Part shown: positions 8,889-60,813 of the stretch, piece by piece
Layout: each line of letters opens with the position of its first letter
Numbering within the stretch: the first letter of the stretch is position 1
Origin: Amoeboaphelidium occidentale
Taxonomy: Eukaryota
Assembly (NCBI GenBank): GCA_023515795.1
Contig: JALGPX010000043.1
Span: 1-64,000, forward strand
Length of the DNA stretch: 64,000 nucleotides
Reading direction: 5' to 3'
Program-made: the position numbers and the translations under genes
Notes under the pieces: generated by a model
What the model saw: only the letters and a program-made list of their open reading frames with translations
What the model was told of the DNA's origin: nothing
The model's database searches: none

Positions 8889-11813
8889 TTATTTCACTTC
8901 GACCTTTTCTAGATCTGAAGCCAAACTTTCTACCGATGAGCTCTCCTTAGAATTATCATTAGAAACGCCTAAAGCCATCAAGACTTGCTCCCATGTTCCA
9001 GTTCTTCCTTGGCCAAACACAATCGCTTTCATGCCTTGTTGTCTACAAATTGCACAAGTGTCATCTCTATCATCAATTAATAGTTCTAATTGATTCTGTT
9101 TCATTAACTCTGTTTTCAAAGTACGATCGCGACAGAACATCCAACGTTCCTCTGGGACAATTTGATCAACTTTGTCGGCTAGCAAACGCTCCCTAGTCGC
9201 CATTTCTGTCTTCTCACCACAATAAGATAGAAGCCACATATCAAAGTTATTTTTCTTGAGAAGACTGAGAGAATTAAACGCACCTTTGACTTCAACAGTG
9301 CTGTCTTCCATAACGTGGTCGGCGGAATCAGAGACTTTGACAGACTGATAGATGACATTGCCAATATCAACAGCAATACGCTTCGACTTCAGCTTAATTT
9401 GTTGAGGTAACCTTGTGGTCACAGCTTTGTTTCCGAACTTCATTTCGTTCCCTCCTCTGACAGTTCCATTCAAGATCACAGGTTCATCCAATTTTACAAC
9501 GTGTCCTGACTCATTTTCTAGTAATTCATTCGAATAAACAGGGTATACACCATCAGCCAAAGCCAATGTGATGTGTGCGATCTTGTTTGTCGATGGGATC
9601 GTCTTATCTGCAATCTCGACACGAGCAGTTATGCATTTATCGTCATACACAAGCGATTCCACTTCAACATCTGTCTTTCTCTCTTCTTTCACTAATTTAC
9701 TTAAAGCTATGTAGTCTTTAGGAGTAATGAACATTCCTTGGTATGACAATGTGACATGAAAAATATCGTTCAACTTCTTATTCTCTCTGAATTGTTCTGG
9801 AACGAGATCTATCCAAGGTTTAACGTCAATATTCCTGAAAAATATGGCAAAGTACCCGTAACGACTATCATTTTGTTCTCCAAGAAGATTCTCGTATTCT
9901 ACTGAATATTTCAACGCATCACTTACAATCTGAGTATCAATCTTTTTCAACAACTCAGGAGTTAAAACAGACTTGGCACAGAATTCCAGCATAGACAGTT
10001 TGTCCTTTGTCATATCAACTTTGACCAAGTTTGAAGTGAAATGAGACAGTTTCTGTTGATTCATGGCCAACTTCTTGAAGGTTCCAAGTATCATGCTAAT
10101 ATCTGCGTCAGATCTCAATGTTCTGTGAGAATCGCCGCGAGCATGAAATCTTTCTGTGCATAACTTGATAGTATTCTCCATTTCAAAATCATCCTTATCT
10201 TCAGGATGCATGAAATTTAAAATGTAGTCAAATGGACCATTCATAATATCGAAGATATCTTGCAAATTCTGGGCGTCTCTGTTGCTCTTGTCCATAATGA
10301 TGAAATTTGGTTTACTCTCGTAAGCTGCCCTAAATGCCTTCAAGTATTGCGGTCTCTTTCCAATTTCATCTTGGTTTAGCCATATTGCAGTTTTACCAAG
10401 AGAATGAAAAATGTATTGCAAGCCACGAGCAACCATTGATTTGCCAGAACATGGCAAGCCTCTCATCGCAATAACACACGTGAACTTTGAAGTCTCATAA
10501 TCTCCCCACCAATTCTTTTCCGGAAGGCTTTTAAATGTATTTTGTAATGACAACCACTCTCTTTGTATTTGCATTGCATGAAGCTCGTTCTCTCTTCTGT
10601 AAACCTGAAGCCAGCCACTGAAATTAATCAAAAAATTTAATCTGGTATCAATCCAATTTAAAGCAGCTTCATCGTCATTAAATAGATTCTTTGAAACATC
10701 ATGAACAGAATGTCTTGTCTTCATTGCAGAATCGCCTCTTATAATGCAGCCTCTTGTTGATCTTTCCAATACGTATGCAAGTGACTTTATCTTGCACATA
10801 TAAACAACGTGCGAATCTTCTTCTGCAAAAGGTTTATCAGAATAATAACCTACACAGCCTTCACTATTCTGTTTGTTTTTGATATCGTTAAGAAGTTCTT
10901 CATATTCAACAGAACCAACACGAACTTCAGGAGACATCCACGGAGTTGGAAGACCAAACCCGGAGAACGCCTTTAAAGCAGCAGGCACAGTCAAAGCTGT
11001 CAGATTTCCCATAGAACAATTGTCAGATGTTACAGCAAAAAATCTTATATGATCATCAGAACTTCCGTAATCAACAATGTGCTGACTGAAAGACAAAATT
11101 GCCTCACCTACAGCTGTGTAACTATTATCAGCAAGCCAGGCCTGGAACTCTTTGTTCTTGCACTTCTCCAGAACCAGTTTAGCGATGATCTTGGCAAAGA
11201 CGTACTTATCATCGCTCAATAGTGGCGAATTTAAATCATCAGCATTATGAAACACAATGTGAACGTTCTTGGAACCAGCAAGCCAGTAAAGTTCTCCTTT
11301 ATATCTGAATGCGCTTATTTGAGCATTCTCGCCGTTCTCCTTCTCAAGAACCATCATATACTTGGCCTTATCATAATCACCATAGCAAAGCTTTGCCCTG
11401 TCTTCTAAGTAACCAAATTTGCGCAGGCCTTGAACAGTTCCCAAGCGATTACCATCGGAATCATAAGCCAATGAAGTGCCACGCGGTAACAAGTTCCAAA
11501 TGTCTCGATTCTTGGAGTAAATAGAATCATCGTTACCACGCACGTGAACATTGAACACAACGAACTTGTTGGAATTAGCTGTGGCCTCAGTCATCCTGAC
11601 ACCAATGCGCTTTGCACAGGAATACTTTGACTCCAAATCCTTCAGTAAAACTTCTTTCCAAGTCATAAATCGAACAACGGAATATTTTGAGTTTTTGATT
11701 TTTCTGACTTGGCAATGGCGAACATTTGGGTGGCAGCTGGAGACAACGACTTCCAAACGGTTAAGGTAAATTCCGCAAATGCTTTCGTATTCGCCGATAT
11801 CATAGACTTGCAT
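8889..11813 (-). CDS. Multidomain RNA repair/tRNA-ligase-like protein: ATP-dependent RNA ligase + P-loop kinase + 2H phosphoesterase + HAD-like domain
   Basis: Ligase motif I EKENGE, IV SEGCV, V CKIKS; P-loop GLPCSGKS; 2H motifs FHVTL and AHITL; C-terminal IAVDIGNVI...LIDDR. Single 974-aa ORF; the true start may be further downstream. Confidence 0.8.
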   Translation of the reverse strand: MQVYDIGEYESICGIYLNRLEVVVSSCHPNVRHCQVRKIKNSKYSVVRFMTWKEVLLKDLESKYSCAKRIGVRMTEATANSNKFVVFNVHVRGNDDSIYSKNRDIWNLLPRGTSLAYDSDGNRLGTVQGLRKFGYLEDRAKLCYGDYDKAKYMMVLEKENGENAQISAFRYKGELYWLAGSKNVHIVFHNADDLNSPLLSDDKYVFAKIIAKLVLEKCKNKEFQAWLADNSYTAVGEAILSFSQHIVDYGSSDDHIRFFAVTSDNCSMGNLTALTVPAALKAFSGFGLPTPWMSPEVRVGSVEYEELLNDIKNKQNSEGCVGYYSDKPFAEEDSHVVYMCKIKSLAYVLERSTRGCIIRGDSAMKTRHSVHDVSKNLFNDDEAALNWIDTRLNFLINFSGWLQVYRRENELHAMQIQREWLSLQNTFKSLPEKNWWGDYETSKFTCVIAMRGLPCSGKSMVARGLQYIFHSLGKTAIWLNQDEIGKRPQYLKAFRAAYESKPNFIIMDKSNRDAQNLQDIFDIMNGPFDYILNFMHPEDKDDFEMENTIKLCTERFHARGDSHRTLRSDADISMILGTFKKLAMNQQKLSHFTSNLVKVDMTKDKLSMLEFCAKSVLTPELLKKIDTQIVSDALKYSVEYENLLGEQNDSRYGYFAIFFRNIDVKPWIDLVPEQFRENKKLNDIFHVTLSYQGMFITPKDYIALSKLVKEERKTDVEVESLVYDDKCITARVEIADKTIPSTNKIAHITLALADGVYPVYSNELLENESGHVVKLDEPVILNGTVRGGNEMKFGNKAVTTRLPQQIKLKSKRIAVDIGNVIYQSVKVSDSADHVMEDSTVEVKGAFNSLSLLKKNNFDMWLLSYCGEKTEMATRERLLADKVDQIVPEERWMFCRDRTLKTELMKQNQLELLIDDRDDTCAICRQQGMKAIVFGQGRTGTWEQVLMALGVSNDNSKESSSVESLASDLEKVEVK

Positions 11814-15553: not shown

Positions 15554-16797
15554 CTATTCATACCAGTGTAGGAACCATAGAATAAACGCCAGTAATAGAA
15601 AGAATAGCAGCATAAAATTACGGTATTCTACTCCGCTCCTTGTAGCTCTTCGGAGTATTTCGTTGCCTCTCAAAACTTTATCTGTTGTTTGGATCGACTC
15701 ATCATGCAGTCGATTGATATCTTGATACTGAGCATTCACGTGCATTTCAAGTTGGTCTTGTAAAGAAGAGATCTCCATAATACTCTGCTCTGCTTTCCTA
15801 TAATGTTAACGCTTCAGATTATCAAATACCTCAGCTCAGTTGCAAGACCATTTAGATGCTCAAATAGGAACTTATTCTCCTTTTCAAGCAAAACTTTTTC
15901 TTGCATTGAAACTTGAGGTTCAGGCTCTTCTACAGGAGAATATTCTGGCGGTAATGAATTCATTGAACCCGTTTGAATTTGATGAGGTCTCTTATTCTCC
16001 GTTTCAAGTGTCACAGCTACTGGCGCACCAGCGAAATCTTCAGTCTTATCCAAAAGTGTCTTGAACCGAATTTCCTGATACTTTTTAAGAACCTCTGAAG
16101 CATCGGATAATTTGTTGCGCAAGTATGTTATGATGATTTGGAAATGCACTTGATAATCCCCGCTTTCACCAACGCCTGACTCTACCATGACCCTTCCTAA
16201 TGCAGCTTTAGTCGTGCAAACAGAAAATCTTACTTGTATCATTTTCCAGAATGCTTATGCGCTCAGAACAGGTCCTCATGAACTGGGAGAATTGCCTTTC
16301 CATATCANNNNNNNNNNNNNNNNNNNAACGCCTGACTCTACCATGACCCTTCCTAATGCAGCTTTAGTCGTGCAAACAGAAAATCTAACTTGTATCATTT
16401 TCCAGAATGCTTATGCGCTCAGAACAGGTCCTCATGAACTGGGAGAATTGCCTTTCCATATCATCCCTGTCTGCTTCTGACATTGTAACGCTGCCTTCTA
16501 ATTGCACATGTCGATTAACGTTTAAATAAGAAACACTGTTCTTCTTTAAAAGTTTCTTCATTTCCATAATGCTTGAGACCTACGCAATGTCAGCTTTTGG
16601 GTTTGCGACAGACTTGAGCATACAATCGACTGTGCTTCGACGGAGAATTGTCGCATTTGCTGACTTCTGGATGCCTTCAGCTTATCCTGAACTTCCTTGT
16701 TCATGTCCCCTTGCTCCTCTTTTATATCATTTATTAAAGATACTTGTCGCTGTCTTCGTTTAATTATGTCCCGGAATGTTGTAGTCAGATCGGCCAT
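15554..16797 (-). CDS. UFE1: ER Qa-SNARE syntaxin-18/Ufe1 (crosses an N-gap with duplicated flanks)
   Basis: N-terminal MADLTTTF, MSEADRDDME, SNARE coil, C-terminal TM ending LWFLHWYE. Confidence 0.85.
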
Positions 16798-28357: not shown

Positions 28358-29868
28358 ATGAACTTTCTGGACTTGAAGAAACTGTCAGAAATAGGAAATC
28401 AGATTTTAAATGAAGTCGCTCCACCTCCGGAATCGATGGCTCAGTACGAAGTTAAATACGAAGTTCCGGAAGCGCCTGTTTTAAATGATCATTCTTACGA
28501 AGCTCAACCTGAAGTCGACGATGGATTCACAGAAGAAGCATTTGATTTACAGGCACCTGCGGTCATACAGCCACATGCATTAGATGAAACTGCTGATAAA
28601 GGGACTAAACACTCGGAGCCTTTTGTTTCGTCGAATATTGGCACGACACCAGACAGCGAATTGATAAAGCTTGAATCAAGGAATGCGCAACTGTCAACTG
28701 ATTTAAGAGACCTGAAAAAATTACATTCGGAATTCAAGTACGATTTAAAAACTATTTTTGGGAGAATACTTTCTGGTTCTTCAATTGACGGATCGCTGTT
28801 GGTTCCGGAAGAGTTTCATGGGGAAATTTCACAGCTTGCGCGACTTGTTTCGGCTGGAAGAGAAAGGCCTACCGTAAATTCTGATGATGAATTAGAAAGG
28901 TCAAAGAAAGAAGTCGAACGGTTAAGGCGTCATTTAGTCGAATCGGAATCTAGTCACACTCAGGAGCTTCTGGAACTTCAGGCTCAGCTAGATCACGTGC
29001 AAGGTCAGTATGAAGCTGCGTCTGGAAGAATTCTCGCTTATGAGCAGATGGTAAATGAACGTGCGACAGTAACAAAGAGTCAATATGACGAACTTGTTTC
29101 AAGTTTCGAAAGATTGAAGGATGAATTACAAGAAGCAAAAGACGACTATGAAGATCAAAGGCGGAGGAATGACAGTCTTGCTCAAGTTTTAAGTGAATAT
29201 GAAATCGCAAAGCAAGGCGAAATTGATCTTGTTACTGGATCTCTGAAAAGCCAAGTCGGTAAATTGCAACAACAAGTTGATCAATACAAGAAGAGCCAAC
29301 TCGAGCACGACGTAAGAACCTTGTTTAACTTTGAGTAATTCGCTAGGCAATTTTTAAAGAACTAGGAATGGATCTTGAAGAGCTGAAGGTATTAAAAAAG
29401 TCTCAAGGGGAAAAAGATAAGTTAATTGGGTCCCTTCAGAAGCAGGTTGGAAATTTATCAATGGCCTTGTCAACAAGTTCATTCTATACGTCTCCAAGTG
29501 CAGTTTTGAATTTTCCCGGGAGTCCTTATTCAAGTACAGACGATGTTTCAAAGTCGCCTTCACAAACGATCGACCCTCGGATTCTGTCAAACTTGTTACA
29601 GCAGTATTTTACGTCAAAAGATCCTCAGCGGCTGGAGATATTGGTACTCATTACTAAAGTTCTTAATATGAGTGATTCTGAACGGGATGTTATTGGACTG
29701 ATACGAGATGAGCGAGGGAAATGGACAAGAAAGAAGTCGAGAAAAGCTTCTGAAGATTTGAGTCAGAATGCGTCCCTGGCAGAACAATGGATGTCGTTTC
29801 TTCTTTCGGAAGCTAGAAAAGCTGAAAAGAATGAGAATGCAGAGTCAGAAACAGAACAAGAGGAATAA
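28358..29868 (+). CDS. GRAB-domain golgin (Rud3/GMAP-210-like)
   Basis: Long coiled coil; IDPRILSNLLQQYF...EILVLITKVLNMSDSE; SLAEQWMSFLLSEA. Confidence 0.75.
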
Positions 29869-41610: not shown

Positions 41611-43035
41611 ATGTTCAATTACAAACGCAGCATGTTTCGATATTTCTCCAGCGTAGTTGCGCCCAGACTGAAAGAAGAGTCAGCAGAGATACCGCAGGCA
41701 GCTGCGAAGAGTGTCACCTTTTACCGAAGAGAGCTGCCTGCCCATTTGATCTCATTTACATCTACGAAAGGCAAACGATTATTTAAAGAGAGCTTAGAGT
41801 CTGGATATGCGGAGAATTACTTTCCGCTCGTGGGGAATTTCACCACGCAGTCTGAACCGGAGTTTTGCGCTTTGGGAAGTCTTGCGATGGTTCTCAATGC
41901 TTTGGAATTGGATCCTGGTAAACAATGGAAAGGCGTCTGGCGGTGGTATTCGGACGACAATTTGGAATGTTCCGCTGTGAATGCGAACAGCATCAAAGGA
42001 AAAGGCGTCACGTTCCGAGAATTTGCTTGTTTGGCAAAATGCAATGGTCTGAGTGTGCAAAGCAAGAGGTCCGACACAGTCACGAAGGAAGAATTCATGG
42101 CAGACTTACAGTCTGTTTGCCAGTCTGTAGATTCTCATATGGTGGTTTCCTTCTCTAGAAAGACTCTTGGGCAAACTGGCGATGGTCATTTCAGTCCAGT
42201 AGGAGCATTTAACAAGGAACGAAACATGGCTTTGGTTTTAGATACGGCGAGGTTTAAGTATCCCTCATACTTTGCGTCTGCAGATCTGCTTTTTGAGTCT
42301 ATGAAGCCTATTGACAAGGATACTGGTTTACCAAGAGGATATTTTGTGCTAAAGAGAGGCAGCACGAAACGATGCAATAATCACCTTTCTTTATGCCGTC
42401 TCACGCATTCTATCGGTGTATCTAATCCAAAACTTGCAAAGTTGTTCTGCAGTCAACTACCTAAACATCTGAAGGAAATCAATCCTTCCTCTTTGGTTGA
42501 TGCAATTTGTCACATCTTGCGGTTCATTCCAGCAGAATATTCTGCACTAATTAGTGTAAATGATGTTCATTCAAATGCAGTGGACCTGGCTTCTCCAACA
42601 GGCAAGCCAGGTTGTGATCTCCTAAGAGAGTTTGATAAGGAATTGTCTGTTATGCTACGAGAATTGACATGTTCTCCTTTGTTCACAAGTGTTAAAGCAG
42701 CAATGGGCGTGGTTTATGGTCAGAAAGAGCGCCCGCAAGTTTATGAAATGTTGCAAAAGTATACCGGAATAGCCCCTGAGGATTTGGACGCTTCGCTGGC
42801 TACTATTTTTATGCTTTCGTGTCCTAGAGAAGTTTTCAGAACATTAGATCCTGTACTACTACAAGAAATTGACGCGTATCGACGAAAAGATGCAATGAGC
42901 GATGTTTTGCGTCCAGAAGTAGAAAGAATCAGCGAGCAATTGAGCACTTTGATGAATGATTATTGTAAATGCTTTCAAAAGAACGCTGCTTTAGAGAAAT
43001 TGCCTTCGGTCCGATTATCATTGGGCTGTGTGTAA
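41611..43035 (+). CDS. PCS1: Phytochelatin synthase
   Basis: FYRRELP, QSEPEFC (Cys), WKGVWRWY, GQTGDGHFSP (His), LDTARFKY (Asp). Confidence 0.95.
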   Translation: MFNYKRSMFRYFSSVVAPRLKEESAEIPQAAAKSVTFYRRELPAHLISFTSTKGKRLFKESLESGYAENYFPLVGNFTTQSEPEFCALGSLAMVLNALELDPGKQWKGVWRWYSDDNLECSAVNANSIKGKGVTFREFACLAKCNGLSVQSKRSDTVTKEEFMADLQSVCQSVDSHMVVSFSRKTLGQTGDGHFSPVGAFNKERNMALVLDTARFKYPSYFASADLLFESMKPIDKDTGLPRGYFVLKRGSTKRCNNHLSLCRLTHSIGVSNPKLAKLFCSQLPKHLKEINPSSLVDAICHILRFIPAEYSALISVNDVHSNAVDLASPTGKPGCDLLREFDKELSVMLRELTCSPLFTSVKAAMGVVYGQKERPQVYEMLQKYTGIAPEDLDASLATIFMLSCPREVFRTLDPVLLQEIDAYRRKDAMSDVLRPEVERISEQLSTLMNDYCKCFQKNAALEKLPSVRLSLGCV

Positions 43036-56437: not shown

Positions 56438-57979
56438 ATGGCGGAGTCGATTATTACAAAGTCTGATCAAATGTCCGGAGGTCTCGGAATGCACCAGCCA
56501 GGTTCCTCTGGGCTCATGGGCACACCAATTTTAACGGATAGCAGTTATTACAGAGATCAAGTTGATAGAGTTTTAAGGGAGAATAAGCAACTCAGAACAC
56601 GAATGGAGCAATTAGAAAAGGAAAATGTGTCTCTGAAGAAGAGCGTCTTTGATTTAACAAACAGAATATCAGAGCTATTGAGGTCTAATACCTCTACTTC
56701 AAAGTACTTCATGCCGGAACCTTCGATTGATGTCTCAAGCTACGGTGTTCCAGGCCAAAGGTCACAAAACGAAGCTGCGCACTACGTTGGCAGTACAATT
56801 GGCTCGCCTGTAATGGCTGGGAGCTCTGTGTCAAGTTCTTTTATGAATGGCTTACAGAAACAGTTTACAGCTACTTCAGAGCACGTGGGAGAAGATTTGG
56901 CGGTTCTGAAGGGCAAACAAAGCTTTGTGTTGAAGCATGAAATCAAATCGCATTCTGGGGCTGTCTATGTAGTTAAACACTCACCCAATGGTATGTTCAT
57001 GGCTTCTGGTTCTTTTGACAAGACTGTTCGGGTGTTTGATTGTAACAATGATTACGCAGAGGTTCAGTGTTTCAAGAAGCATTCTTTAAATGTTTCAGAC
57101 CTGACATGGTTGCCGGACTCTACGGAAGTTATTTCTGGGTCGTTTGATCAAACATGCAAGATTTTTAATCTTGAAGAGGGTCGCATGGTGCATTCTGTAG
57201 AATGTGAAGGCTTCTTGCAATGCGTCGAAGTTGTACCTAGTGATCCTGCTTTATTCTGGAGCTCTACATCCAAGAAAATAATTGTATTGAATGATAGACG
57301 TAAGCCTAATCCTGCGCTGGTCGTTCGAAATGATGGTATTATCAACTGTATGCATGTTTACAACGATAGCTCAAAGTTGCTTACGGGCGATTCTTCAGGT
57401 TGTTTGAAAACTTGGGATTTTAGAACTGGACAATTGTTAAACAGTTACACTAATGAAACAAAATCTCCAATTAGCTCATTTAGCTTCGTGAGAACGAGTC
57501 TGGATCAAGAGGAACATCGATTCATGGCAGTGAACAGTTATGACAACGTTGTTCGAGTTTATGATCGAGGAGATGATATTGCTCCGAATGCATGCAGATT
57601 GCTTTATGAAGTAAAAGGACCTCATTTGAAGAATTGGCCGATTAAGAATGCGTTCTTCCAACCAACGTTACAGCCTCTTCAGAATGCGCTTGGAGGAGAA
57701 GGAATCGAAGGAAGAGAACACAATGATCGATACATACTTGCTAGTGGTAGCAGTGATGCTAATGTTTATTTGTATTCTGTTAAGTTGGATCAATTGAGTC
57801 GCCCCAGTTCGAGAGGTGTTGGTAAAGTGGAAATCCCAACTGGAGTTGATACCTTGCAAGTACTTCAAGGCCACAGCGATCGAGTTTATGGTGTTTCATT
57901 TCATCCTAGAGATTTATCCCTCGCTTCCTCAAGCTCAGATTTTTCAATTAGAATTTGGAAGCCTCGAACCAAGCAATAA
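56438..57979 (+). CDS. Coiled-coil plus WD40-repeat protein
   Basis: N-terminal coil; HSGAVY, SGSFDKTV, GHSDRVY...SSDFSIRIW. Confidence 0.85.
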   Translation: MAESIITKSDQMSGGLGMHQPGSSGLMGTPILTDSSYYRDQVDRVLRENKQLRTRMEQLEKENVSLKKSVFDLTNRISELLRSNTSTSKYFMPEPSIDVSSYGVPGQRSQNEAAHYVGSTIGSPVMAGSSVSSSFMNGLQKQFTATSEHVGEDLAVLKGKQSFVLKHEIKSHSGAVYVVKHSPNGMFMASGSFDKTVRVFDCNNDYAEVQCFKKHSLNVSDLTWLPDSTEVISGSFDQTCKIFNLEEGRMVHSVECEGFLQCVEVVPSDPALFWSSTSKKIIVLNDRRKPNPALVVRNDGIINCMHVYNDSSKLLTGDSSGCLKTWDFRTGQLLNSYTNETKSPISSFSFVRTSLDQEEHRFMAVNSYDNVVRVYDRGDDIAPNACRLLYEVKGPHLKNWPIKNAFFQPTLQPLQNALGGEGIEGREHNDRYILASGSSDANVYLYSVKLDQLSRPSSRGVGKVEIPTGVDTLQVLQGHSDRVYGVSFHPRDLSLASSSSDFSIRIWKPRTKQ

Positions 57980-58337
57980 CTGGCCCTTCGCTACAGGATT
58001 AGTTCAAATAAAATCCAAATCTTACTTGGAAGAGCGTTACACGAATCGCCGATTTCTCGGCTACGCTGGTGGAGACTGAACAAGTAAATATGCAAGCATA
58101 ATCACCTGACATTAGCCTTCATTTGCATTCAAATCCAAGAAAACGTGCCTGATATTTCGTGCAGCGTTTATGTCCCTGTTCCAAACAGTTAAGCAATCTG
58201 AATTGCAGATTTTAACCGCCCGAAACTTTGTCTGTTTCAACTCATGTAAACAGAATGAGCATAACTTGCAGGGTTCAGNGATGTTCCTGTTCATTGAAGC
58301 ACCCTTCGGAAACTTGCTGAAACTCTTGAAGAAATAA

Positions 58338-58470
58338 CTGGCCCTTCGCTACAGGATTAGTTCAAATAAAATCCAAATCTTACTTAGAAGAGCGTTACAC
58401 GAATCGCCGATTTCTCAGCTACGCTGGCGGAGACTGTACAAGTAAATATGCAGGCATAATCACCTGTCAT
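58338..58470 (-). ncRNA. Putative Fanzor omegaRNA scaffold (second copy at 57980-58112)
   Basis: Lies between the Fanzor remnant and the element 3' end. Minus-strand stems GCUCUUC/GAAGGGC (one G-U) enclose GGAUU/AAUCC and end 3 nt before the junction. Confidence 0.55.
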
Positions 58471-58676
58471 TAACCTTCATTTGCATTCAAATCCAAGAAA
58501 ACGTGCCTGATATTTCGTGCAGCGTTAATGTCCCTCTTCCAAACAGTTAAGCAATCTGAATTGCAGATTTTAACCGCCCGAAACTTTGTCTGTTTCAACT
58601 CATGTAAACAGAATGAACTTAACTTGCAGGGTTCTGAGCGAGCTAGATATATTCTCTTTAAGAAAGTGCATTCGCA

Positions 58677-58711
58677 CTCCAGCTCGCAGCATGTAGACGC
58701 TTGAGCTGGAG
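58677..58711. repeat. Subterminal hairpin at the element's 5' end
   Basis: CTCCAGCTC (58677-58685) pairs with GAGCTGGAG (58703-58711) as a perfect 9-bp stem, with further inner pairing. Confidence 0.8.
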
Positions 58712-58767
58712 CTGCAAGCAATAAGCCTTTTGTTATTTGCCGTCAGTGTTGTTTTTTCACACAACAA

Positions 58768-60813
58768 ATGCCCCAAGCTTCAAATTCGCAGGAAAAGTTC
58801 ACAATTGCTGTGCCAAACAGTCAAAAGCCTGGCTCGTCTGCAATTTACAGGAATAAGTCCAGCCCAGATAAGTTGGCATTTGATGAAAGTCTGCCAAGAA
58901 CTTTGTATGAGAATTTCCAGAAGGGTCTCAAAATTTCTCCTGATGGCCCATGCTTAGGCACAAGAACTATTGACCCAAAAACAAAGAAGGCAGGCGCATA
59001 TCAGTTCCAGACTTACCGACAAGTAAATGAGCGTCTTACTAATTTTGGTGCTGGTTTGCTGCAACTCGGTGGAACTGTTTTAAAACAAGGGGGCGTCGGT
59101 TGGAATGTCGGCTTGTACTCCATCAATAGGCCTGAATGGGTGATTGCGGAACAGGGCTGTAATGCTTATTCGCTGGTCACTGTCGCTTTGTATGATACTT
59201 TGGGTGCTGATACACTTTCCTTTACGGTAAATCATGCAGATTTAAGCGTTGTCGTTTGTTCGCTTGACAAGATTCCTAATCTTCTCAAAGTTTCTTCGAG
59301 TTGCCCAAAGTTGAAGGCGATCGTATCGATGGATGAATTTGGTCCGAATGAGAAAGTCGTAAATGTTCTGAAACAATGGTGCGCAGACAAGAATATTTCG
59401 CTTTACAGTTTCAAAGAGATTGAAGAATTGGGTCAAAAGCACGCAAGAAAGCACATTCCGCCTAAGCAGGATGATATTACAACAATTTGTTATACTTCTG
59501 GTACCACTGGAAATCCAAAAGGAGTAATGGTGTATCATCGTAATTTTGTTGCTGCTGCTGATGGAATTAAATCTCATAATTTGAGTTTCGATAAGAATGA
59601 TGTAATGATCAGTTATTTGCCTCTTGCTCACTGCTTTGAGCGTGTGCTTCAGACTGCAATTTATGGGAACGGTGCATCGATTGGTTTCTATCGTGGTGAT
59701 GTCTTGTTACTTGTCGAAGATATTCAGGCTTTGAGACCTACGTTCTTCCCTTCTGTACCTAGATTATTCAATAGGATCTATGCCAAATTAATTGAAGGAA
59801 CCATCAAGGCTCCTGGTGTAAAGGGTATGCTTTGTAGAAAGGCTGTTGCTGATAAGTTGTACTATTTGAAGGAAGCAAATACATTGCACCATACATTTTG
59901 GGATGGTCTGTTGTTCAAGAAAGTTGCAGCTGTACTTGGAGGACGTGTAAGATTGATGATTACCGGTTCTGCTCCTATTTCAGGTGAAGTTTTAAACTTT
60001 CTCCGAGTTTGTTTCTCGTGTGAGATTTTAGAAGGCTTTGGTCAAACTGAGTGCGCAGCAGGTTCAACTTTGACATTCCCCGGTGATTACATAACTGGTC
60101 AAGTTGGTGTTCCAGTTGTTTGTAATGAAATCAAATTGGTTGATGTGCCGGATATGGGTTATTTTACTACTGGTGATAAACCAAAAGGTGAAATTTGCAT
60201 CAGAGGATACAATGTCATGAAGGGCTATTACAAAGAGCCAGCAAAGACTGCTGAAACACTTGATGAAGAAGGCTGGTTGCACACTGGAGACATTGGAACC
60301 ATCACTGAAAAAGGTTGTGTTGCCATTATTGATAGAAAGAAGAACATTTTCAAACTTGCCCAAGGAGAATATGTTGCACCAGAGCGCTTGGAAGCAGTTT
60401 ATCTGAAATCAAAATTTATAATGCAATGTTTCGTTCATGGAGACTCTTTGCAGAGTGAATTAGTCGCTGTCATTGTACCAGAGCCAGTTCAGTTACAGGA
60501 ATGGGCTAAGAAGAATTTGGATAAAGGTACTTCGTTGGAGATGGAATTATTGTGTCAAAAGAAGGAAGTTCATGCGTTGCTCCTTACTGAGCTCGCTAGA
60601 GTAGGAAAAGCTTTGAAGTTGGCTGGATTTGAGTTGCCAAAGAACATTCATGTTGAGCATGAACCATTTTCCGTTGAGAATGATTTGCTGACTCCTTCTT
60701 TCAAGCTCAAGAGAAATATTGCTGTAAAAAAATACCGCAAGATCCTGGATAAGTTATACGAAGAATTGGAGAAACAAAAACAGGTTGTCGGTGAGACTAA
60801 ATCGATGTTGTAA
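58768..60813 (+). CDS. Long-chain acyl-CoA synthetase
   Basis: YTSGTTGNPKG, SYLPLAH, GFGQTE, GWLHTGD, IIDRKKNIFKLAQGEYVAPE. Confidence 0.95.
   Translation: MPQASNSQEKFTIAVPNSQKPGSSAIYRNKSSPDKLAFDESLPRTLYENFQKGLKISPDGPCLGTRTIDPKTKKAGAYQFQTYRQVNERLTNFGAGLLQLGGTVLKQGGVGWNVGLYSINRPEWVIAEQGCNAYSLVTVALYDTLGADTLSFTVNHADLSVVVCSLDKIPNLLKVSSSCPKLKAIVSMDEFGPNEKVVNVLKQWCADKNISLYSFKEIEELGQKHARKHIPPKQDDITTICYTSGTTGNPKGVMVYHRNFVAAADGIKSHNLSFDKNDVMISYLPLAHCFERVLQTAIYGNGASIGFYRGDVLLLVEDIQALRPTFFPSVPRLFNRIYAKLIEGTIKAPGVKGMLCRKAVADKLYYLKEANTLHHTFWDGLLFKKVAAVLGGRVRLMITGSAPISGEVLNFLRVCFSCEILEGFGQTECAAGSTLTFPGDYITGQVGVPVVCNEIKLVDVPDMGYFTTGDKPKGEICIRGYNVMKGYYKEPAKTAETLDEEGWLHTGDIGTITEKGCVAIIDRKKNIFKLAQGEYVAPERLEAVYLKSKFIMQCFVHGDSLQSELVAVIVPEPVQLQEWAKKNLDKGTSLEMELLCQKKEVHALLLTELARVGKALKLAGFELPKNIHVEHEPFSVENDLLTPSFKLKRNIAVKKYRKILDKLYEELEKQKQVVGETKSML

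Follow-up and report, generated by a model that had tools for sequence, protein, structure and literature searches.

The stretch of DNA analysed here (positions 1 to 64,000 of contig JALGPX010000043.1 of Amoeboaphelidium occidentale, a parasite of algae related to the fungi; 64,000 nucleotides, hereafter called the window) carries two copies of a short Fanzor-derived element downstream of a host gene for a WD40-repeat protein. This gene is a 513-aa open reading frame (ORF) on the plus strand (56438..57979), and its TAA stop codon (57977-57979) is the end of a left direct repeat with the sequence CAAGCAATAA (57970..57979, plus strand), which represents target DNA with an ATAA core. Copy 1 of the element (57980..58278, minus strand) begins directly after this stop codon. 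It includes the right end, a putative omega-RNA region and a Fanzor remnant, and it is truncated by a scaffold gap, a single N at position 58279. There follow a 58-nt piece (58280..58337, plus strand) and copy 2 (58338..58714, minus strand), a full-length mini-element of 377 nt (net insertion 387 nt), the flanks of which come from different loci in the assembly. The right direct repeat (58715..58724, plus strand) is again CAAGCAATAA and has a length of 10 nt at the WD40 locus. When the element and one repeat are removed, an intergenic gap of 43 nt up to the next ATG is left (58725..58767), followed by the downstream neighbour, a host gene for a long-chain acyl-CoA synthetase (ACSL; 58768..60813, plus strand). 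The two junctions, the 58-nt piece, the recurrence of CAAGCAATAA and the 43-nt gap agree with an initial annotation that had been made from the letters. The two copies are visible as a direct repeat of 300 nt (at 57971 and 58329), and they differ at 12 positions across 57980-58278.

The 58-nt piece translates as MFLFIEAPFGNLLKLLKK and ends with a TAA stop at the junction with copy 2. The initial annotation had suggested that this peptide is the C-terminus of an acyltransferase-3/NRF-6-type protein encoded at a second locus, and this gene was found. The 18 residues of MFLFIEAPFGNLLKLLKK are the exact C-terminus of an NRF-6/acyltransferase-3 protein of 707-709 aa (P0047-P0050) on another record and contig, and 58280..58337 comprises the last 18 codons and the TAA stop of that gene, a true gene 3' end. 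A simple codon score for this frame was negative and was overruled by the protein match.

For comparison with the window, we used the contigs of six public sequencing runs (X1, X2, X3, X5, X7, X9; 22 runs are listed). In run X1, the unique flanks listed do not differ from those of the window, which may stem from this run. In its assembly, the two flanks (WD40 and ACSL) and the 58-nt piece are each found on a long contig of their own, all three at single depth. The WD40 flank terminates a 57-kb contig 22 nt into the element, the ACSL flank opens a 19-kb contig that starts within the left end of the element, and positions 58280-58360 are the end of a 43.9-kb contig that continues unbroken into other DNA at single-copy depth (107 vs. 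106). A match of 58280-58333 on opposite strands in this run belongs to the same 43.9-kb contig, which has another element copy at its far end. No contig linking copy 1 to the 58-nt piece was found among the runs compared. At NCBI, the acyltransferase protein is located on a 366-kb record, and four of seven window proteins were found by exact look-up on a 79.5-kb record. Duplicated DNA flanks all three N gaps of the window. Since the N at 58279 joins pieces that lie on separate contigs and records, the tandem pair is an assembly artefact, with one element at the WD40/ACSL locus and a second at another locus. The initial annotation had described both copies and both junctions as the letters give them but had overlooked the N. 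The two further scaffold gaps (20 and 19 N; 2624-2857 and 16171-16463) have duplications of 107 and 137 nt on either side and are unmerged contig overlaps that break genes in the assembly.

Both copies carry the C-terminal remnant of a Fanzor1 nuclease. In copy 1 (58115..58276, minus strand), it includes zinc-finger cysteines and the RuvC-III motif W-x-R-D-x-N-A-A-x-N-I; in copy 2 (58473..58627, minus strand), the first cysteine is replaced by serine. The remnants match Pfam PF07282 with E-values of 7.6e-5 (copy 1) to 0.001, falling short of the curated cut-off. The proposed Fanzor origin was corroborated by 48 of 52 identical residues (92%) between the copy 1 remnant and the A. occidentale protein KAI3657174 (P0029), which is listed among the Fanzor hidden Markov model matches in the available supplement of PMC10711439. 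KAI3657174 retains DPG, the alternative glutamate (E-H-N-T-S) and RD (R-D-I-N). A search of 1.84 billion representative proteins returned 27 matches, several of 675-739 aa, and the best cluster includes KAI3657174. When a family profile (16 sequences) was compared with the PDB, SpuFz1 was the best match (E 1.6e-21), followed by PpFz1 and GtFz1. The parent thus has the hallmarks of Fanzor1: it is a long eukaryotic protein whose RuvC triad includes the DPG motif and, ahead of the zinc finger, the alternative glutamate. The window itself carries only the last ~50 Fanzor codons. Judged by its sequence, the element is a non-autonomous deletion derivative of a Fanzor1 transposon.

A word search of the remnant against longer proteins gave no match. 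Against the PDB, the remnant yielded one leucine-rich-repeat chance match and P0006 alone none. The right-end pattern was absent from viral contigs and prokaryote genomes, and its three matches in metagenome contigs (19-22 nt) were all rejected as chance. Protein-based locus scans for KAI3657174 returned nothing in viral or genome contigs, an alignment-based locus scan found 19 distant loci with 27-47% identity over short C-terminal stretches, and the four Rfam matches were all far under the gathering score. Seven of 24 longer relatives are labelled A. occidentale, and several of these look like mis-joined repeats. The A. occidentale Fanzor1 gene models P0051, P0052, P0054 and P0060 contain repeated blocks and are probably mis-joined repeat assemblies. 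The genome contains several distinct Fanzor1 families (P0063, P0067, P0019). Furthermore, P0069 (1356 aa, on three contigs) combines N-terminal XPG nuclease domains with a C-terminal Fanzor-type zinc finger and is a candidate for a fusion or a gene-model join.

On the minus strand, the element consists of the left end with a hairpin, the last ~50 nuclease codons, ~135 nt of non-coding DNA and the right end, which finishes with GGGCCAG. The left end (58628..58714, minus strand) carries the terminal hairpin (arms at about 58673-58685 and 58703-58715), for which folding gave z-scores of -1.9 as DNA and -2.5 as RNA. The junction of the internal deletion lies near 58627; at the corresponding point, the reading frame of the parent goes on in a contig of run X2. 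After position 58713, other copies end with CTGCGCG-ATAAA and the copy in the window with G-CAAGCA-ATAA. The WD40 copy is aberrant. Its site is AATAAG, and the final bases of the left end have been exchanged for the same number of bases of target sequence, giving rise to the 10-bp repeat. A 10-bp target site duplication (TSD) of the MuDR type was therefore rejected as a family rule, the repeat being special to the WD40 copy and the others having the fixed CTGCGCG-ATAAA end (36 contigs). We found no inverted pair of at least 20 nt in the element. The ends of the window copy are identical at 11 of 30 positions in register, and the only subterminal inverted match seen by eye covers 6 of 7 positions. 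DNA transposons with terminal inverted repeats (TIRs) and miniature inverted-repeat elements of the Mariner, MuDR or hAT types were rejected for lack of TIRs. An in-frame read-through role for the length of 387 nt was likewise discarded, as there are stops in all three sense frames.

Several variants were observed around the ends. In X1, X2 and X5, the depth of the left-end region 58640-58706 exceeds that of the remaining element several-fold; other families probably share this left end, and an autonomous partner may be among them. In X7, other sequences continue from 58711-58712. Several runs contain copies whose interior is different from the stop codon of the nuclease to the stems of the right end (58407-58475), and loop variants are present at 58365-58368. 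From their sequences, these variants appear to represent at least two omega-RNA subfamilies, which are useful for covariation analysis.

A predicted omega-RNA scaffold (57976..58114, minus strand) extends from the stop of the remnant across the right end and includes the TTAT core. In the predicted fold, the terminal G-UUA(U) pairs with an internal (G)UAAC (four pairs, p 0.80-0.87). Two differences between the copies fall within stems, and both change C-G to U-G. According to the available parts of the sources, the TSD forms part of the scaffold in Fanzor1 RNAs (Yoon et al., PMC10711439) and the 5' TSD is recognised as belonging to the target-adjacent motif (TAM; review PMC13565253). Because of the predicted pairing and these two precedents, the conserved TAA would have a reason unrelated to translation. 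On the host sense strand, the right end includes an AATAAA 28 nt past the host stop (58007..58012, plus strand; 58365-58370 in copy 2), a candidate replacement poly(A) signal by its sequence; some variant right ends lack this internal AATAAA. In the window, AATAAA was found within -5..+40 of 10 of the 54 scored stops, compared with 3 of 54 for the reverse complement, and thus the target motif itself is somewhat tied to gene ends.

To define the target, we inspected the 43 displayed contigs in which other DNA leads into the right end of the element; six rows lay outside the display. ATAA precedes the right end in 37 of these 43 junctions and AATAA in 30; the other seven ATAA cases have G at the fifth position. 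Flanks sharing ATAA give longer matches, which the contig-matching tool favours, and its tie rule is unknown; nevertheless, depth too was seen to rise at 58332-58335 in X1, X2 and X3. A binomial P-value for the 37 of 43 was set aside because the runs share loci. The left-end consensus is free of this match-length bias: after 58713, CTGCGCG is followed by ATAAA in all four runs with such contigs (13, 5, 11 and 7; 36 in total). Run X9 is an exception, with ATAA at one of four junctions. The aberrant WD40 copy is the only one that was observed with both of its flanks. The right-end counts and the left-end consensus make R-ATAA-A the likely target, and ATAA flanks the element on either side. The annotation had read AAGnAATAA before CTGGCCC at both junctions. 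This is present as written, but AAG is not conserved at other junctions and was dismissed as chance, and only R-ATAA is kept elsewhere.

In four of four runs, depth is higher over the element than over its flanks by a factor of tens. Because adding up contig depths overstates the copy number, we estimate dozens of copies. Empty alleles, which the initial annotation had recommended to look for, were found at both loci. At the WD40 site they occur in X2, X5 and X7 and contain the 10-nt repeat once (joint 57969 to 58715, with 10 letters fitting both sides); at the acyltransferase site they occur in X2 and X3, with AATAAA across the site. The element thus has the properties of a ghost, i.e. a non-autonomous family: both ends are kept, the nuclease gene is lost, and it is multicopy and mobile, with many flanks and empty alleles at two loci. 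Run X5 also holds a more diverged empty allele with a TAG stop of the WD40 gene at the same place and a different 33-nt gap; X5 represents at least two strains or sister species.

The initial annotation had concluded that the element targets host TAA stop codons as a safe harbour in a compact genome. Both junctions in the window are true stop codons, as verified at the protein level by the WD40 ORF and the exact acyltransferase C-terminus. Recognition of stop codons as such was not upheld, since the TAA belongs to the R-ATAA-A motif, which is present on both sides. Among the flanks represented by single contigs (n = 7, read by hand over 30 letters), four had no in-frame stop at the junction, whereas the other three have an open frame that ends with a stop there, which in one case is a TAG in the absence of the motif. 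As to the four stop-less flanks, one open frame crosses the junction, one flank has a depth of 2.8, and for two a 3' splice site within the 30 letters is possible. On the basis of these four flanks, an element targeted strictly to stop codons was rejected. An open frame of 10 codons precedes 157 of 399 random RATAA sites of the window, so that the single flanks by themselves show no stop enrichment. Stops are thus not obligatory. Nevertheless, enrichment at gene 3' ends is likely, and the safe-harbour outcome may hold via selection instead of targeting. In X1, a flank from 58328 seemingly places a copy inside an ORF. Its frame would run on for eight codons of the element before it ends, so that a host protein may be truncated at its C-terminus.

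Taken together, the element is multicopy and polymorphic, has the motif on both sides and a Fanzor1 remnant, and sits at two true stop codons. We consider it reasonably probable that it is a multicopy non-autonomous Fanzor1 derivative that inserts at a fixed R-ATAA-A target and survives mostly at gene 3' ends. Copies would survive mostly there because nearly all other motif sites lie in coding DNA: with a rough gene model of this one window, the coding share is ~83%, and coding DNA holds 318 of the 399 RATAA sites (~80%). As a possible mechanism, a transposase supplied in trans would recognise the ends and integrate the element at the ATAA core. The right end together with TTAT would be transcribed as omega-RNA scaffold with the flank as guide, and at stop-codon sites this guide would be antisense to the last codons of the host gene. 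A full-length Fanzor1 acting in trans with the predicted TAM 5'-(T)TTAT may cut alleles that lack the element, whereupon repair templated by the filled allele would retain the copy. Insertions at coding sites (~80% of the motif sites) would be purged by purifying selection. Stop-codon sites may be safest, since the left ATAA preserves the stop and the AATAAA of the element at +28 may replace the displaced poly(A) signal. The transposase class, the RNA, the TAM, the homing and the poly(A) use are what we infer here. With regard to the transposase, a Crypton-like tyrosine recombinase is our best but tentative guess because of the lack of TIRs and the fixed short direct repeat. An HUH/Helitron2-like enzyme and a DDE enzyme, such as the Harbinger-type transposase of MCi-5, are both somewhat less likely and equal to each other, and any other class is less likely still.

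Several observations weigh against this reading. No transposase or recombinase domain was found in the 11 Fanzor-family proteins scanned. The fold of the whole omega-RNA region was not significant against shuffled sequences (z -1.7 for copy 1, -0.5 for copy 2 and -0.16 for a longer piece). In X9, one copy stands after an in-frame TAG without the motif. Stops make up 3 of the 49 non-disrupting AATAA sites of the window (2 of 48 without the WD40 site), i.e. 4-6%, and two stops at two junctions have a P-value of ~0.002-0.003, or 0.016 if only stop and 3' untranslated region (UTR) sites are tolerated; this pair had been picked by the earlier reader because of its appearance, which qualifies the P-value. 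The composition of the flanks was counted by hand in majority-consensus flanks of groups of at least five contigs (five upstream and four downstream rows), and the T fraction was 0.18 upstream and 0.39 downstream. Simulation of this difference from window sites gave P-values of 0.38 for TAA stops and 0.06 for sense 3' UTR sites; for non-coding sites of other kinds the value was 0.005, and for those in coding DNA it was 0.003. These values are a hint only, given the loci shared among runs, the unknown tie rule and an upstream T fraction lower than the 0.24 +/- 0.03 that the stop model predicts. Either selection is much stricter than a tolerance of any non-coding site would mean, or some targeting exists. 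Finally, the gene mask is a rough model built from one window.

The alternative that survives best is true targeting of gene 3' ends, with integration steered to stops or 3'-processing sites, e.g. by a termination or polyadenylation factor, so that the ATAA motif would partly reflect TAA usage and AATAAA signals. It would account for the two protein-verified stop junctions against the 4-6% baseline, for a flank composition that fits stops best, for the three of seven single flanks open to a stop at the junction (including the TAG) and for the enrichment of AATAAA just past stops relative to antisense. In addition, when one X9 flank was compared by hand with the matching X3 consensus in the stop frame, the two differed by one silent and one conservative change. 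Against it, four of seven single flanks lack an in-frame stop, one of them with an open frame across the junction, and two open frames among four TAA singles correspond to chance when the 157 of 399 random sites are considered. TAA accounts for only 27 of 55 scored stops, yet it stands at 38 of the 43 junctions; a stop codon gives no reason for the fixed ATAAA on the far side, and selection alone can yield the bias. We regard true targeting as unlikely. The same holds for a bolder version, in which a ghost family specialised on gene ends integrates on the stop or poly(A) signal, supplies AATAAA from its own omega-RNA hairpin and directs a guide antisense to the last codons. In that version, Fanzor would drive harmless insertions by cutting empty alleles of an indispensable gene, like homing introns or inteins but without splicing.

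Less likely still is plain motif insertion without real stop bias, the two stop junctions being a lucky pair picked by the reader. TAA lies within the motif, the single flanks do not beat chance, and the finding was selected after the fact, all of which is in line with this possibility, but stops are rare among tolerated sites and the asymmetry between upstream and downstream composition has P-values of 0.003-0.014 under random or non-coding models, again with shared loci and the unknown tie rule. A real tandem, i.e. an array of two omega-RNA units in which the 58-nt gene fragment was captured as second guide, is displayed by the order of the window, where the right repeat fits the WD40 flank and the middle junction another gene, but it is largely refuted by the N join, the duplications at the other two gaps, the single-copy depth of the 58-nt piece on its unbroken X1 contig and the separate NCBI records, and we consider it highly improbable.

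In IS200/IS605 (Y1) elements, a subterminal hairpin of the left end is set back from the cleavage site, and a guide tetranucleotide lies at its foot; a T-rich target adjoins the left end. The TTTAT next to the left end of our element resembles IS605-type targets (PMC13565253, available parts), but its hairpin starts almost at the end itself and no TnpA was seen.

The comparisons with eukaryotic systems that follow refer to the available parts of the cited papers. The closest counterparts are the Spu-1 ghost elements of Spizellomyces punctatus, which are multicopy and retain both ends and the omega-RNA without an intact Fanzor (Saito et al., 2023, PMC10432273). Our element shares with them the ends without intact nuclease, and SpuFz1 is the best structural-database match of its parent protein family; fixed bases adjoin the left end in both, and those of Spu-1 match its TAM (CATA). 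In contrast to Spu-1, which has 30-nt inverted repeats and TA duplications, the Amoeboaphelidium element lacks clear TIRs and carries a terminal hairpin; its R-ATAA-A site contains ATAA as a 4-nt core, and ~50 nuclease codons are retained. The available text of PMC10432273 describes no gene-end bias of Spu-1. The MCi-5 Fanzor1 elements of Mucor circinelloides, the classification of which is unresolved (Bao and Jurka, 2013, PMC3627910), also lack significant TIRs, and their fixed direct repeat ATTTAT ends in TTAT. By description, MCi-5 is long and present at five loci, some with a Harbinger-type transposase, whereas our element has 380 nt, dozens of copies and no transposase that we could find. 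The insect-virus Fanzor1 elements SFav-1 and HVav-1 have a 4-bp TTAN duplication built into the RNA scaffold, similar to what we predict here, but these elements code for the full protein and are bounded by TIRs of 13 bp (PMC3627910; PMC10711439).

Cryptons, in which Fanzors are known (PMC3212892; review PMC13565253), have no TIRs and fixed direct repeats of 4-6 bp, one being the target and one the element end (Kojima and Jurka, 2011, PMC3212892). These end features are found here as well, although paired flanks come only from the aberrant WD40 copy. Unlike in Cryptons, no tyrosine recombinase was found for the Amoeboaphelidium family among the 11 proteins scanned, and a terminal hairpin is no Crypton feature in the available parts of PMC3212892 and PMC13565253. 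The Helitron2-Fanzor1 elements CRe-1, CRe-2 and CRe-3 of Chlamydomonas have a 5' hairpin and a fixed T-rich target, as does our element, and CRe copies with an altered 5' end show duplications of 7-19 bp comparable to the 10-bp repeat of the WD40 copy (PMC3627910). However, intact CRe elements insert after TTTT without a repeat and possess asymmetric inverted repeats, whereas intact Amoeboaphelidium copies have ATAA on both sides. Helitron2/Helentron elements are characterised by a 5' and a 3' hairpin, asymmetric inverted repeats and a RepHel partner; of these features, the 5' hairpin is present here, and no convincing asymmetric terminal inverted repeat was seen by eye.

Amoeboaphelidium Fanzor proteins have been catalogued before: they occur 38 times in a supplement of PMC10432273 and 112 times in the one that accompanies PMC10711439, as far as these are available; none were found in the supplements of PMC10530073. 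In main texts, with subscription papers and Repbase outside our reach, we found no literature on aphelid Fanzor elements and no matching case of stop-codon or safe-harbour insertion by a eukaryotic DNA transposon, and the available text of PMC2759123 does not describe stop-codon targeting.

Elsewhere in the window, an ORF of 974 aa (8889-11813, minus strand) combines DUF7920 with fungal tRNA-ligase kinase and phosphodiesterase domains. AATAAA at its stop is a potential free target site, and another lies at 29868. A phytochelatin synthase gene of this aphelid-like genome is located at 41611-43035 (plus strand).

This ghost family is real and active and has apparently not been described before; it has unusual ends, and its gene-end bias is probable. 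The analysis corrects a scaffold artefact that could otherwise be misread as a guide array, and it provides the ends, the target motif, a predicted TAM (TTTAT/TTAT) and a predicted omega-RNA for a Fanzor1 family known so far only as rows of published tables. Across strains, there are dozens of natural insertion polymorphisms. It can now be tested which enzyme is responsible for the movement of Fanzor elements that lack TIRs, and whether homing by Fanzor maintains the ghost copies of natural populations. Should the bias towards gene ends exceed what selection yields, the family would represent a new way for a DNA transposon to reach a safe harbour within a eukaryotic genome that is very compact.

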